From NCBI GenBank assembly GCA_963702555.1, contig CAVPCW010000011.1, positions 499,753 to 563,752 of the forward strand: a DNA stretch of 64,000 nt, in the 5' to 3' direction. A program made the translations under genes and the position numbers. This stretch comes from an uncultured Actinomycetes bacterium. GTDB lineage: Bacteria; Actinomycetota; Acidimicrobiia; Acidimicrobiales; Acidimicrobilacustridaceae. The notes below the pieces were generated by a model. The model had not been told where the DNA came from, searched no databases, and saw only the letters and a list, made by a program, of their open reading frames with translations. The first letter of the stretch is position 1. Every line of letters begins with the position of its first letter. Shown piece by piece: positions 47,885-50,651 of the stretch.

Positions 47885-49511
47885 ATGGCCGAGTCGTGGG
47901 ATCGCGTCGTCGACGTCGTCATCGTCGGAACCGGGGGAGCGGCCCTGACCGCCGCCACCCTGGCCCACGACGGTGGCGCCGAGGTGCTGATCGTCGAGAA
48001 GGAGCCCATGCTCGGCGGCACCACCGCCGTGTCGGGCGGCGGCGTGTGGCTGCCGGGCAACCACGTGATGAAGGCCGCCGGCGTGGAGGACTCCAAGGAA
48101 GAGGCCCTCGCCTACGTGCGCCGGGTGTGTGGCGGCAGCGAGCCCGACCCCGAGCTGCTCGAGGTCTACATCGACACCGCGCCCGAGGTGCTGCGCTACC
48201 TCGAGGACAACACGCCGCTGTCGACCCACATCCAGCCGCTGCCCGACTACTACTGGCCGTGGGGCTTCCCCGGCACGAAGATGCAGCCCGGTCGCACGGT
48301 CGAGGCCGACCCCTACCCGGTGGGCGACGAGCTCCCCGAGTGGAAGGACCGCATCGTCAAGCGCGGCACGCTCATGTCGTTGGGCGCGGCCACGACCCTC
48401 GCCGAGGACCTCCTGCCCCAGGGCCCGGAGCTGGAGGCCGAGCTGAAGCGCCGCGAGGAGCAGGACATCCGCCCCAAGGGTGCCGCGCTCATCGCCCGGC
48501 TGTTCAAGGGCCTGCTCGAGCGGGGCGTCGAGACGCTGCTCGAGACCCCGGCCAAGGAGATCGTGACCGACGACGCCGGCGACGTGATCGGCATCGTCGT
48601 CGAGCACGAGGGCGTCCGCACCCGCATCGGTGCCCGCAAGGGCGTGGTGCTGGCGTGCGGTGGCTTCGAGTGGAACCCGGCGCTGGTGAAGGCCCACCTC
48701 GGCTACGAGGTCTTCCCCCTCAGCCCCGGTGGCAACACCGGCGACGGGCTGATGATGGCGGTCGAGGCCAAGGCCCAGCTCGGCAACATGCCGTCCTACT
48801 GGGGCACCCCGGTGATGTTCGACCCCGAGATCACCCGCGACGGCCGGCCCGTCCCCCAGTTCGAGTGGGGCCGTGGTGCTCCTGCGTCGATGGTGGTGAA
48901 CCAGAAGGGCAACCGCTTCGCCAACGAGGCCCTGCCCTACAACGACTTCCCGAAGGCGTTCGGGGTCTACGACGCCGACGCCGTCGAGTTCCCCAACGCC
49001 GGCCCCGGCTACCAGATCTTCGACAGGACGGTCCGTGACTCCCAGCGCATCCTGTCGCTGTTCCCCGGCGAGCCCGACCCCGACTGGGTGGTCAAGGCCG
49101 ACACCATCGGCGAGCTGGCCGAGAAGATCGGGATCGATCCGGTCGCCCTCGAGGCCACCGTCGAGCGCTTCAACGCCAACGCCGTCGAGCGCCAGGATCC
49201 CGGACTTCGGGCGCACCGCCCACGGCCTCATGTCGCCCGGCGCGGTGCGGCCCCTCACGCAGGCGCCGTTCTACGCCGTCGAGATCCACCCCGGCATGCT
49301 CGGCACCAACGGGGGCCCCCGCCTCGACCGCAACGGGCAGGTGCTCCGCTTCGGTGGTGGCGTGGTCGGCGGCCTCTACGCCGCCGGCAACACCGCGGCC
49401 AACGTGTTCGGCGTGGCCTACCCGAGCGGTGGCGGGACCCTCGGCAACGGCCTGGTGTTCGGCTTCCTCGCCGGCCGCCACGCCGCCGCCCAACCCGCCC
49501 GCCCCGTCTAG
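47885..49511 (+). pseudogene. FAD-dependent oxidoreductase, 3-ketosteroid-delta1-dehydrogenase (KstD)/fumarate-reductase-flavoprotein-like, with a +1 frameshift
   Basis: The N-terminus reads DVVIVGTGGAALTAATLAHDGGAEVLIVEKEPMLGGTTAVSGGGVW. The frame is sensible to ...ERFNANAVERQDP (49201). It then continues only in the next frame (track ORF 49035-49511): DFGRTAHGLMSPGAVRPLTQAPFYAVEIHPGMLGTNGGPRLD..., ending at TAG 49509-49511. Confidence 0.75.
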
Positions 49512-49640
49512 ACCCCGTCACACCTGAAAGGTGGCTCACCTGCTTCGGCGGGCTGGATCGTGTGAGCCACCTTTCGCCTCGACCCCGAAAGCTGGCTCAC
49601 CTGCTTCGGCGGGCTGGATGGTGTGAGCCACCTTTCGGGA
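49511..49640. repeat. Tandem duplication of a ~51-nt hairpin element
   Basis: Cores at 49526-49576 and 49587-49637 differ at 2 positions. Each has 14-nt arms GAAAG(G/C)TGGCTCAC / GTGAGCCACCTTTC around a 22-nt loop. Both copies are preceded by GACCCCG. Confidence 0.85.
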
Positions 49641-49642
49641 GG

Positions 49643-50533
49643 TCAGGTCGGGGGGCGGCCGCCGGCCTGGCGGCTGATCACGGCCGCGCAGTCGCGCACC
49701 TTGCGGCCGGCCTCGGCGACGGTGGAGGCCGGCAGGCCCCAGGGGAAGCCGGTGGCGCTCACCGCCGCGATCACGCCGCCGTCGGGCCCGAACACGGGCG
49801 CGGCCACGATGCCGACGTCGAAGTGGTGGTCGTCGTCGAGCTCGACGACGGGGTAGTCCTCCCGGGCGAGGGCGGCGAACAGCTCGGCCACGTCGTCGCG
49901 CAGCTCGGTGCGACCGGGGTCGTCGGTGAGGGTGAAGGCCCGCTCGCCGAGCATGCGCTGGGCGTCGGAGCCGGCGGTGACGGCGAAGCCGCGTGACCGC
50001 ACCAGCTCGAGCGCGTCCCGGCACCGGGCCACGGCCCCGGCCGAGCCCTCCGGCGTGCGGGCCAGCCAGTCCTCGACGTCGTCGGGGTCGGCCCACGCCA
50101 TGAACACCGCGCCGAACGGGGGCACGAGCGGCACCCTCTCGCCCTCGCGCACCGCGGGCCCGTAGGGCGTGGGCTCGCCGGCGCGGGCCACGAAGATGAT
50201 CTCGTCGACGGTGCGGGCGGCGAGGACGACCTCGGTGCCGAGCTCGGCGGCGAGCGGGCCGATCAGGCGCCGGCCGGCCTCGACGCCGGGCTGGTGCTCG
50301 AGGGCCACCACGCCGGCGACCACCAGCGCGGGGCCGAGGGTGTAGGCCTTCGTGGTCGGGTGCCGGCTCACGTGGCCGCTCTGCTCGAGCACCGCCAGCA
50401 CGGCGTGGGCCGACCCGAGGCTCATCCCCGTGCGCCGCACCAGCTCGCTGAGGGTGAAGCGCTCGGTGGGGTGGGTGACCAGCAGGTCGAGCACCTGGAC
50501 GGCACGGGCGGCGGCGGGTGCGGGTCGGGCCAT
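49643..50533 (-). CDS. IclR-family transcriptional regulator
   Basis: ATG 50533 within ORF 49643-50638. N-terminal wHTH RAVQVLDLLVTHPTERFTLSELVRRTGMSLGSAHAVLAVLEQSGHV, followed by an IclR effector-domain-like C-terminus. Confidence 0.85.
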   Translation of the reverse strand: MARPAPAAARAVQVLDLLVTHPTERFTLSELVRRTGMSLGSAHAVLAVLEQSGHVSRHPTTKAYTLGPALVVAGVVALEHQPGVEAGRRLIGPLAAELGTEVVLAARTVDEIIFVARAGEPTPYGPAVREGERVPLVPPFGAVFMAWADPDDVEDWLARTPEGSAGAVARCRDALELVRSRGFAVTAGSDAQRMLGERAFTLTDDPGRTELRDDVAELFAALAREDYPVVELDDDHHFDVGIVAAPVFGPDGGVIAAVSATGFPWGLPASTVAEAGRKVRDCAAVISRQAGGRPPT

Positions 50534-50607
50534 CGGGATCTCGTTTCGAGGCTGATTGACGGGTCGACAGCGGGTGTCTACGGTCACAGCACCATAGCGA
50601 AGAGACC

Positions 50608-50621
50608 TTCGCAATTGCGAA
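50608..50621. promoter_or_regulatory. Perfect 14-bp palindrome TTCGCAATTGCGAA
   Basis: Lies in the comparatively AT-rich divergent region between the IclR gene (start 50533) and the LLM oxidoreductase (start 50652). Confidence 0.45.
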
Positions 50622-50651
50622 ACAAGAGCGAGATGCACCGGGGGAGATGAC

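Follow-up and report, generated by a model that had tools for sequence, protein, structure and literature searches.

Few non-coding features of bacterial genomes are as abundant as repetitive extragenic palindromic (REP)-like repeats. To our knowledge, the REP-associated tyrosine transposase (RAYT) is the only enzyme known to propagate such repeats, and we know of no propagation mechanism for large REP classes, such as the one carrying a CGTC tag, or for whole phyla, such as the Actinomycetota. Here we analyse a 64,000-nucleotide stretch of contig CAVPCW010000011.1 (assembly GCA_963702555.1; this whole stretch is called the window) from an uncultured member of the Acidimicrobiales, in which a duplicated hairpin lies between convergent genes for a KstD-like protein and an IclR-type regulator. 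This element is a solo tandem pair (family A) of a REP-like dispersed palindromic repeat, and the families of this repeat are linked, both physically and by phylogeny, to paralogues of a winged helix-turn-helix (wHTH)-Vsr nuclease.

Other non-coding repeats share single traits with this element. Miniature inverted-repeat transposable elements (MITEs), such as Correia/CREE, are small non-coding repeats dispersed at gene ends, as is the case here. The variable-number tandem repeats of the mycobacterial interspersed repetitive unit (MIRU) type form intergenic tandem arrays with a copy number that varies between relatives, again as here, but MIRUs, unlike the hairpins described below, are neither palindromic nor accompanied by a partner gene.

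The closest described systems are the REP/REPIN-RAYT partnerships (REPtrons) of Proteobacteria. Like the repeats studied here, they consist of short extragenic palindromes present in tens to hundreds of copies and in several families per genome (PMC2817692, PMC3116915, PMC3337134). The likeness extends to the preference for the 3'-ends of genes, the frequent clustering, the turnover of repeats within a lineage and the association of each family with a DNA-cleaving enzyme, whose low-copy, vertically inherited gene it also flanks. The CGTC-tagged REPs and bacterial interspersed mosaic elements (BIMEs) resemble our repeats in forming palindromic superfamilies without a dedicated transposase, in occurring as dimers and in their intergenic 3' locations (Di Nocera et al. 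2013, PMC3733652). They have 8-9-bp stems, 4-5-nt loops, the CGTC tag and mostly head-to-head dimers, and a text search of the article describing them finds no mention of Actinobacteria (PMC3733652). On the enzyme side, the homing endonuclease I-Bth0305I is encoded within an intron of a phage recA gene and has a unique target site (PMC3239194, PMC3384342).

Results

The KstD-IclR gap holds one of 30 family-A loci

The gap between the two convergent stop codons spans positions 49512-49642 of the window (131 bp; Table 1). It is occupied by two direct, head-to-tail copies of one hairpin unit (49523-49576 and 49584-49637; 54 nt each, 94% identical, 61 nt from start to start), in agreement with the original prediction, which had been made from the window's sequence alone. 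The predicted stems were also recovered: copy 1 forms 14 bp without mismatch around a 22-nt loop, an imperfectly palindromic centre, and copy 2 forms 17 bp around a 22-nt loop with a single C.C mismatch. This mismatch falls on a polymorphic arm position, here called S, which is a paired G and C in copy 1 (49531 and 49570) and C facing C in copy 2 (49592 and 49631). The left flank CGTCTAGACCCCG reappears before copy 2 as CGCCTCGACCCCG, and copy 1 is indeed preceded by 8 additional nucleotides, TCACACCT (49518-49525). The likeness of the inter-copy spacer (49577-49583) to the left flank of copy 1 is what a tandem duplication that includes both flank and hairpin would leave. The apparent 'filling' of the gap follows from the compactness of the genome, in which the median convergent gap is 38 nt by our gene calls. 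A CUGC-UUCG-GCGG mini-hairpin, proposed for the loop, is absent from the RNA minimum-energy fold, where the 22-nt 'loop' pairs imperfectly, partly through G.U, into an inner stem whose apex is CGGG; only DNA parameters give a comparable short stem with a TTCG closure.

Table 1 Coordinates of the features of the KstD-IclR gap (window positions) and of the bracketed nuclease paralogues (contig positions in the window's own genome)
Feature	Position	Strand	Details
KstD-like stop TAG, left gap border	49509..49511	+	ORF 49035..49511
Octamer GTCACACC, immediately left of copy 1	49517..49524	+	Overlaps TCACACCT
Family-A copy 1	49523..49576	none	Arms 49526-49539 / 49562-49575, centre 49540-49561
Copy 1 invariant core	49532-49539; 49562-49569		TGGCTCAC; GTGAGCCA
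Inter-copy spacer	49577..49583	none	With outer stem bases, the 11-nt non-conserved segment of the 61-nt period
Family-A copy 2	49584..49639	none	Arms 49584-49600 / 49623-49639, centre 49601-49622
Copy 2 core	49593-49600; 49623-49630		TGGCTCAC; GTGAGCCA
IclR-type regulator stop TGA (forward TCA), right gap border	49643..49645	-	ORF 49643..50638
Nuclease paralogue	C11:51597-52565		Brackets A / A; intact
Nuclease paralogue	C13:147795-148535		Brackets C,D / C,C; intact
Nuclease paralogue	C10:280938-281784		Brackets B / B; split, pseudogene

No other copy had been noticed, which is true for the window, but 29 further loci exist in the genome. The window's own genome (G000; 4.24 Mb in 18 contigs, 71.6% G+C, the window being C11:499753-563752) was searched by BLAST and with an iterated nhmmer profile. 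Family A was represented by 55 strong monomers at 30 loci, 25 of which are tandem dimers and 5 monomers. The original prediction had left room for an element with no other copies anywhere; the genome-wide search gives 30 loci, and almost all of the further copies found by BLAST lie at gene ends. With 29 other loci, the element cannot have originated as a locally duplicated ordinary terminator; what local tandem duplication of the 61-nt unit does produce is the dimer form.

The family-A palindrome measures 50-54 nt, and its period is 61 nt in nearly all dimers. None of the 54 comparable copies of the 50-nt core deviates in the arm segments TGGCTCAC and GTGAGCCA, the variable parts being the 3' portion of the centre and the 11-nt spacer. 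Monomers are 95% identical within a locus versus 85% between loci. In related genomes, longer arrays (3 and at least 6 units) have inner units that do not differ from one another even in the spacer, which indicates that arrays grow through local tandem duplication of the 61-nt unit; several array spacers resemble the left flank. An assembly artefact is unlikely, since orthologous dimers are present in independent assemblies. Position S is always G or C. It is unpaired in 40 of 55 monomers (22 of 30 loci, p = 0.008) and in 71% of distinct copies.

We considered the possibility that the element is a discrete structured small RNA, as had also been proposed, or merely a locally duplicated terminator. 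Its predicted folds are strong (-31.8 and -33.9 kcal/mol for the monomers, with z-scores of -5.2 and -4.1 relative to shuffled sequences; -78.3 kcal/mol for the whole gap, with a z-score of -5.95), and the forward strand folds better than the reverse one through G.U pairs. Yet, at permissive E-values, Rfam 15 returned only chance matches to miRNA hairpins, none of which reached the gathering threshold; the best of them, mir-87 (27 bits versus a threshold of 49), is a chance match to a long hairpin. No compensatory stem changes were found among the family-A copies, whose stems are either invariant or vary without compensation, and the core never varies; the lack of covariation is thus accounted for by the invariance of the stem core. 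In the ten tandem contexts of family A, the asymmetric centre runs with the upstream gene in 5 and against it in 5, so that there is no orientation bias. In addition, no canonical promoter signal or other promoter-like site was found in the gap, and the other 29 loci speak against a merely local feature. That S is so often unpaired gives the small-RNA reading no support either. The small-RNA or local-duplication explanation is hardly probable at all.

Family A belongs to a superfamily restricted to one genus

At least six hairpin families occur in G000. All have the mid-stem core TGGCTC(R)...(Y)GAGCCA in common, while their outer arms and inner stems differ. When genomes were scanned for TGGCTCR, 18-30 nt and YGAGCCA, with the reversed pattern as a control, G000 yielded 170 hairpins in 117 arrays, compared with 7 for the control. 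The arrays run head to tail and comprise between one unit and 6 or more. In the remaining four genomes of the genus there are 188, 61, 64 and 37 hairpins, the counts of 170 and 188 being those of the two most contiguous assemblies of the genus. In 302 other genomes of the order, the numbers (0-7 hairpins each) equalled those of the reversed-pattern control. A pattern scan of one genome per species, covering 185,579 species, found families A and E only in metagenome-assembled genomes of uncultured Acidimicrobiales, apart from scattered single chance matches. Two genomes from another genus of the same taxonomic family (G019 and G139) contain 2-3 hairpins each with the same core (TGGCTCGTTTCTGTTTGCTTCGGCAACCAGAAACGAGCCA, e.g. 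G019:C1:425996-426035); these counts are at background level, and the hairpins may represent a remote branch of the superfamily beyond the genus.

The abundance of each family is species-specific. One genome of the genus, G001, is devoid of family A and has about 55 copies of family G, which is absent from G000. Another, G003, abounds in family H (CCCTCTGGCTCAG-TACGTCACG...CGTGACGTA-CTGAGCCAGAGGG; contig C1, loci L179-L238, e.g. 178051, 204646, 405358 and 892599). Few copies of family H are left in G000, partly degenerate, and the orthologous sites of G000 mostly carry family B.

A likeness to DNA-uptake sequences was discarded. The 8-mer core occurs unpaired 1295 times, versus about 1000 expected from composition by a hand estimate; being close to expectation outside hairpins, the motif is enriched inside them only, unlike an uptake sequence.

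The arrays lie at gene 3'-ends, preferentially between convergent genes

Genes were called with a simple codon-log-odds caller, which is imperfect and misses some genes; it called 3785 genes in G000. With these calls, 62 of the 117 arrays are in convergent junctions, compared with 17% of junctions overall (p = 8e-19), 43 are in tandem and 12 in divergent junctions. Of the 30 family-A loci, 19 are in convergent junctions (p = 2e-8). High-copy, extragenic and biased towards 3'-ends and convergent junctions, the hairpins are distributed in the manner of REPs. In the window, the KstD-like gene (47885-49511) was recognised by the caller over its final 282 nt only, which fits a +1 frameshift noted earlier near 49196-49206; the frameshifted N-terminal part was missed.

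This placement would also suit a host function, in which the hairpins act as bidirectional terminators without a U-tract or as stabilisers of mRNA 3'-ends, and are kept by selection and concerted evolution, the nuclease described below being secondary. Such a function would account for the stop codon found within 30 nt of 90 of the 117 arrays, for the stability of the hairpins (-32 to -34 kcal/mol), for the irrelevance of their orientation, as expected of a bidirectional device, and for the conservation of the slots between species despite sequence replacement. Yet the hairpins are not followed by a T-tract: a scan of 49512-49642 found no terminator-like site and no T-run after either copy, so that canonical intrinsic termination is not predicted. 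Furthermore, only about 3% of junctions hold an array (about 120 slots at gene 3'-ends) and most genes do without one, a terminator needs no 8-nt core that is invariant across otherwise different families, and one stem position is preferentially unpaired. Purifying selection that removes insertions from promoters would, as for REPs, produce the 3'-end bias equally well, and twelve arrays sit in divergent regions, several of these rare placements being upstream of nuclease genes. We consider it decidedly unlikely that the superfamily is maintained by a host function, though a terminator or RNA-stabilising side role is plausible at the KstD-IclR locus.

The repeats do not match known mobile palindromes

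The original description of the element as a REP- or MITE-like palindrome was right in that it is repeated (30 loci and 55 monomers; 170 superfamily hairpins), almost always at gene ends; the MITE part of the description is not supported, and no RAYT partner was found. Short, palindromic, extragenic, clustered and numerous, the hairpins have a general resemblance to what a RAYT-mobilised classical REP/BIME or a MITE originating from a conventional insertion sequence would produce. However, the transposase domain of RAYTs (PF01797, Y1_Tnp) gave no match in any of the five genomes of the genus, including a closed chromosome, whereas 6 of 14 control genomes did match, and neither the conserved unpaired 5' GTAG tag by which REPs are defined nor its CGTC counterpart (PMC3733652) is present in the consensus CCCGAAAGSTGGCTCAC...GTGAGCCASCTTTCGGG. 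Each 50-nt unit may be viewed as a pair of inverted 17-nt arms flanking a 22-nt centre, as in a REPIN; the higher-order dimers are head-to-tail, unlike those of BIMEs and REPIN clusters, an arrangement that is rare or absent in known REPs (PMC3733652). No target-site duplication was detected (the longest common substring of the flanks was 2.07, versus 2.12 for shuffled flanks), and pairing between the flanks of a locus, as would result from insertion into pre-existing terminator stems, was no different from that of shuffled partners; the C-rich and G-rich tails of the hairpins are generic. No insertion sequence with matching ends turned up, though no exhaustive search for insertion sequences was made, and no candidate for another mobilising enzyme was found, the systematic search having been limited to Y1. 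Taken together, a RAYT or a conventional insertion sequence is a very improbable source of these repeats.

Hairpin families bracket paralogues of one nuclease

Only 4 of the 3785 called genes of G000 have arrays within 500 nt on both sides, and two of these are paralogues of the same nuclease (Fisher p = 9e-8). A third bracketed paralogue is an uncalled pseudogene (Table 1). Around the gene on C11, which is encoded on the minus strand and specifies a protein of 323 aa, the family-A dimers lie at C11:51524-51634 and C11:52632-52742. In G003, the brackets are A/A, F/F and C/D', and in G001 they are G/G, around the orthologue of the C13 gene. The cassettes are found at orthologous loci across the genus, even where the bracketing family differs (B in G000 versus F in G003; C in G000 and G003 versus G in G001). 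The family-A cassette and family-A hairpins are both present in four genomes and both missing in G001 (0 hairpins), which amounts to a single independent contrast.

More distant paralogues have no TGGCTCR core nearby and are bracketed by long palindromes of their own, whose two sides share 86-100% identity and which mostly lie at a distance of 40-150 nt from the open reading frame (ORF). Four of these palindrome types were tested in G000: three have solo copies (12, 10 and 5 sites, brackets included) and the fourth is found only as brackets. Across the paralogues, protein identity correlates with the similarity of the flanking repeats (Mantel r = 0.25, p = 2e-4). A homologous nuclease gene from a different family of the same class (genome G396, locus L156) lies between two 98%-identical copies of an unrelated 54-nt palindrome (CCACCGAACTTCGGGTGATTAGTGTCGCCATAGCGACACTAATCACCCGAAGTT), so that the gene-between-palindromes layout exists outside the genus.

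A TGTCACA(S)3 box is located 22-30 nt upstream of every AbiEi-Vsr nuclease start codon (loci L114-L141). This box could be the promoter element of a short-leader or leaderless mRNA. Near arrays, 12 such motifs were counted versus 2.1 expected. Of the 12, 4 belong to the cassettes, and in two further cases the gene downstream is unrelated. Boxes of similar sequence also come after family-B hairpins in front of two unrelated genes (G000 C8:159401 and C11:785115). The octamer GTCACACC next to copy 1 in the window (49517-49524) is identical to the conserved box; its significance there is uncertain and it may be a chance match.

At its 3'-end, the ORF of the family-A nuclease enters the downstream array for about 40 nt (G000 C11:51594-51634), and its C-terminal tail ...RRKVAHQIQPRRST is therefore encoded by the repeat; the G003 orthologue stops earlier. 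We also examined the idea that solo arrays are remnants of lost nuclease genes. A tblastn search returned the nine nuclease loci only and no fragments near solo arrays; a deletion between bracketing repeats would in any case go unnoticed.

Genes other than nucleases are found between hairpins too. A 1.9-kb segment of G000 (C10:478261-480427; L002 and L005) with genes for an extracytoplasmic function (ECF) sigma factor and a large downstream protein, which judging by sequence alone may be an anti-sigma factor, lies between two family-A dimers with identical spacers. At the orthologous site of G003 (L090) there is a single dimer and the insert is absent. A second ECF sigma gene (C13:29056-29569) is located between two family-E hairpins. 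Hairpin arrays may mediate the gain and loss of accessory cassettes.

The association between nuclease and hairpins might also have arisen the other way round, the hairpins being spread by other means (host recombination, replication slippage or template switching, an unidentified transposase) and free-standing homing-type nuclease genes landing at hairpin sites because these are safe, with whichever family is present there then forming the brackets. This would fit the situation in G001, where the orthologous site of the missing family-A cassette consists of 56 nt in which a palindrome from a different nuclease-associated family stands alone, as well as the 2-kb ECF-sigma cassette that also sits between family-A dimers and is missing in G003. 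It would also fit the existence of families without a nuclease gene, of abundant families with broken nuclease genes, and the match of the nuclease domain to a homing-endonuclease fold (see below). Yet the cassettes are at orthologous loci across species rather than scattered, protein similarity correlates with that of the flanking repeats, and the conserved layout of palindrome, TGTCACA box and ATG argues for a co-evolved unit. Moreover, no other candidate for the mobilising enzyme was found, Y1 alone having been searched systematically. We therefore regard this reversed order of events as unlikely.

The nuclease combines an AbiEi-like module with a Vsr-like domain

In Pfam, the nuclease protein matches AbiEi_4 in its N-terminal part and DUF559/REase_MTES_1575 in its C-terminal part; sequence searches of NCBIfam and the PDB gave no match. 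An alignment of 22 sequences shows that the catalytic residues are conserved, with S203, E206, D238 and H256 invariant and E249 and D265 nearly so. The first ~200 residues of the AlphaFold model (pLDDT 90.2) match the whole AbiEi antitoxin (6Y8Q, E = 7e-6). The last ~100 residues match the catalytic domain of the EDxHD homing endonuclease I-Bth0305I (TM 0.80), Vsr (1VSR) and the DUF559 protein NGO0050. On this basis, the protein is taken to be a sequence-specific DNA-binding module fused to a probably active, Vsr-like PD-(D/E)XK nuclease. Members of the family are present in 93 of 301 sampled Actinomycetota genomes, with up to 7 or more copies each, many of which have internal stops. We found no publication linking DUF559, AbiEi_4 or MTES_1575 proteins to dispersed palindromes; the sole literature trace is the appearance of DUF559 in a table row of predicted inversion targets (PMC9881135).

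Hairpin slots persist between species while their content is replaced

Solo arrays were compared between species over the first 1.2 Mb of the closed G003 chromosome, in which 30 arrays have a clear orthologous site in G000. At 28 of these 30 sites, G000 also has a superfamily hairpin, compared with a background occupancy of 3% (p = 2e-40), and the two remaining sites hold degenerate hairpins. Copy number varies between orthologous sites (5 versus 1, 4 versus 2, 3 versus 2 and 1 versus 2). At 10 or more of them the family differs as well, and at six or more, family H of G003 is replaced by family B in G000. The KstD-IclR gap illustrates this. It contains the family-A dimer in G000, a family-C dimer in G003, a D-like dimer in G002 and a family-G monomer in G001. 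Its coding flanks are 81-90% identical across these species, and the swap occurs within about 10 nt of both stop codons. Since sites are shared but families differ, the slots are old and their content has been overwritten.

Discussion

The reading that we favour, with a probability placed only a little above even, is that the element is a REP-like selfish palindrome maintained by its cognate nuclease. The nuclease would bind its palindrome through the shared core and then cut, and repair from another copy would multiply, homogenise and replace the scattered hairpins. Nuclease and palindrome would in this way be functionally similar to RAYT and REP/REPIN, or to a free-standing homing endonuclease. 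The pair between the KstD-like and IclR genes would be a passenger, serving at most as a U-tract-less bidirectional terminator or as a protector of RNA 3'-ends for both genes.

Several points weigh against maintenance by a cognate nuclease. The action of the nuclease on the hairpin is purely what we infer from sequences and a structural model. Whole hairpins, including their outer arms, are swapped without flanking homology, for which simple homologous repair offers no explanation. The cassettes are stable at orthologous loci and the gene itself is not visibly mobile. Co-divergence of gene and flanking repeat is already expected from linkage alone, and the joint absence of cassette and hairpins depends on one genome, G001. 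Family E (16 copies) and family H of G003 have no bracketed nuclease, while the nuclease of family B is split in G000 and that of family G has an internal TGA in G001, both families being abundant. Finally, outside the genus only about one-third of the homologous loci show flanking repeats, and long palindromes were found at 1 of 29.

Tentatively, and with the balance somewhat against it, we propose the broader possibility that the superfamily and the AbiEi-wHTH/Vsr cassettes represent a second, independently evolved partnership between repeat and enzyme. In it, a PD-(D/E)XK nuclease of the homing type would recognise TGGCTCR, and its breaks would drive copying and overwriting at conserved 3'-end slots. 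If the nuclease does act on the palindrome, this would be a new class of repeat-propagating system and would provide a set of related DNA nucleases with long sites and with specificities that have diversified in nature. A multi-copy orphan gene family of Actinomycetota would be explained at the same time. Should the partnership be real, this genus, with 37-188 copies per genome, family-specific brackets and slot turnover, would be its clearest natural demonstration system. The genus is in any case a compact and data-rich one, in which repeat families are tied to nuclease paralogues and conserved slots have their content replaced. For annotation, junction hairpins of this type are to be taken as copies of a repeat, not as bespoke regulatory RNAs.

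AbiEi proteins bind two adjacent inverted repeats in their own promoter. This pair of repeats parallels the pair of palindromes located about 50-70 nt upstream of the nuclease genes. The N-terminal ~200 residues of the nuclease share the fold of the AbiEi antitoxin and autorepressor of the type IV AbiE system (6Y8Q; Rv2827c, 1ZEL). Unlike AbiE, the cassette has no second gene and thus no AbiEii toxin partner, a nuclease domain being fused instead, and the palindromes, besides flanking the gene on either side, occur at about 100 unrelated gene 3'-ends. The hairpins also differ from MITEs, in that the combination of terminal inverted repeats of the insertion-sequence type with a target-site duplication is missing.

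The C-terminal domain resembles the EDxHD/Vsr-like free-standing homing endonucleases represented by I-Bth0305I, both in its fold (TM 0.80) and in its E...D/Q...H...D motif pattern (PMC3239194, PMC3384342). As with free-standing homing endonuclease genes, one deals with a selfish, dispensable gene between host genes. Unlike I-Bth0305I, the gene is chromosomal, encodes an AbiEi-like DNA-binding module and is bracketed by palindromes that also exist in many solo copies; its cleavage activity is a prediction.

Compared with REP/REPIN-RAYT systems, the genus has no Y1/HUH transposase. The partner is instead an AbiEi-wHTH plus Vsr/EDxHD-type nuclease, and the GTAG tag is missing. In place of inverted REP doublets, the repeats are full palindromes of 50 nt that follow one another head to tail with a period of 61 nt, and their copies are replaced in place at conserved slots. 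From the CGTC-tagged REPs they differ by their 14-17 bp stems, their TGGCTCR core and their head-to-tail dimers. We found no description of this repeat-nuclease variant in the searchable literature. Dispersed palindromic repeats are already known as a kind; what is new here is their occurrence in an actinomycetotal host, their head-to-tail arrays, a core shared across families and, instead of RAYT, a Vsr-type nuclease cassette with in-place turnover of families.

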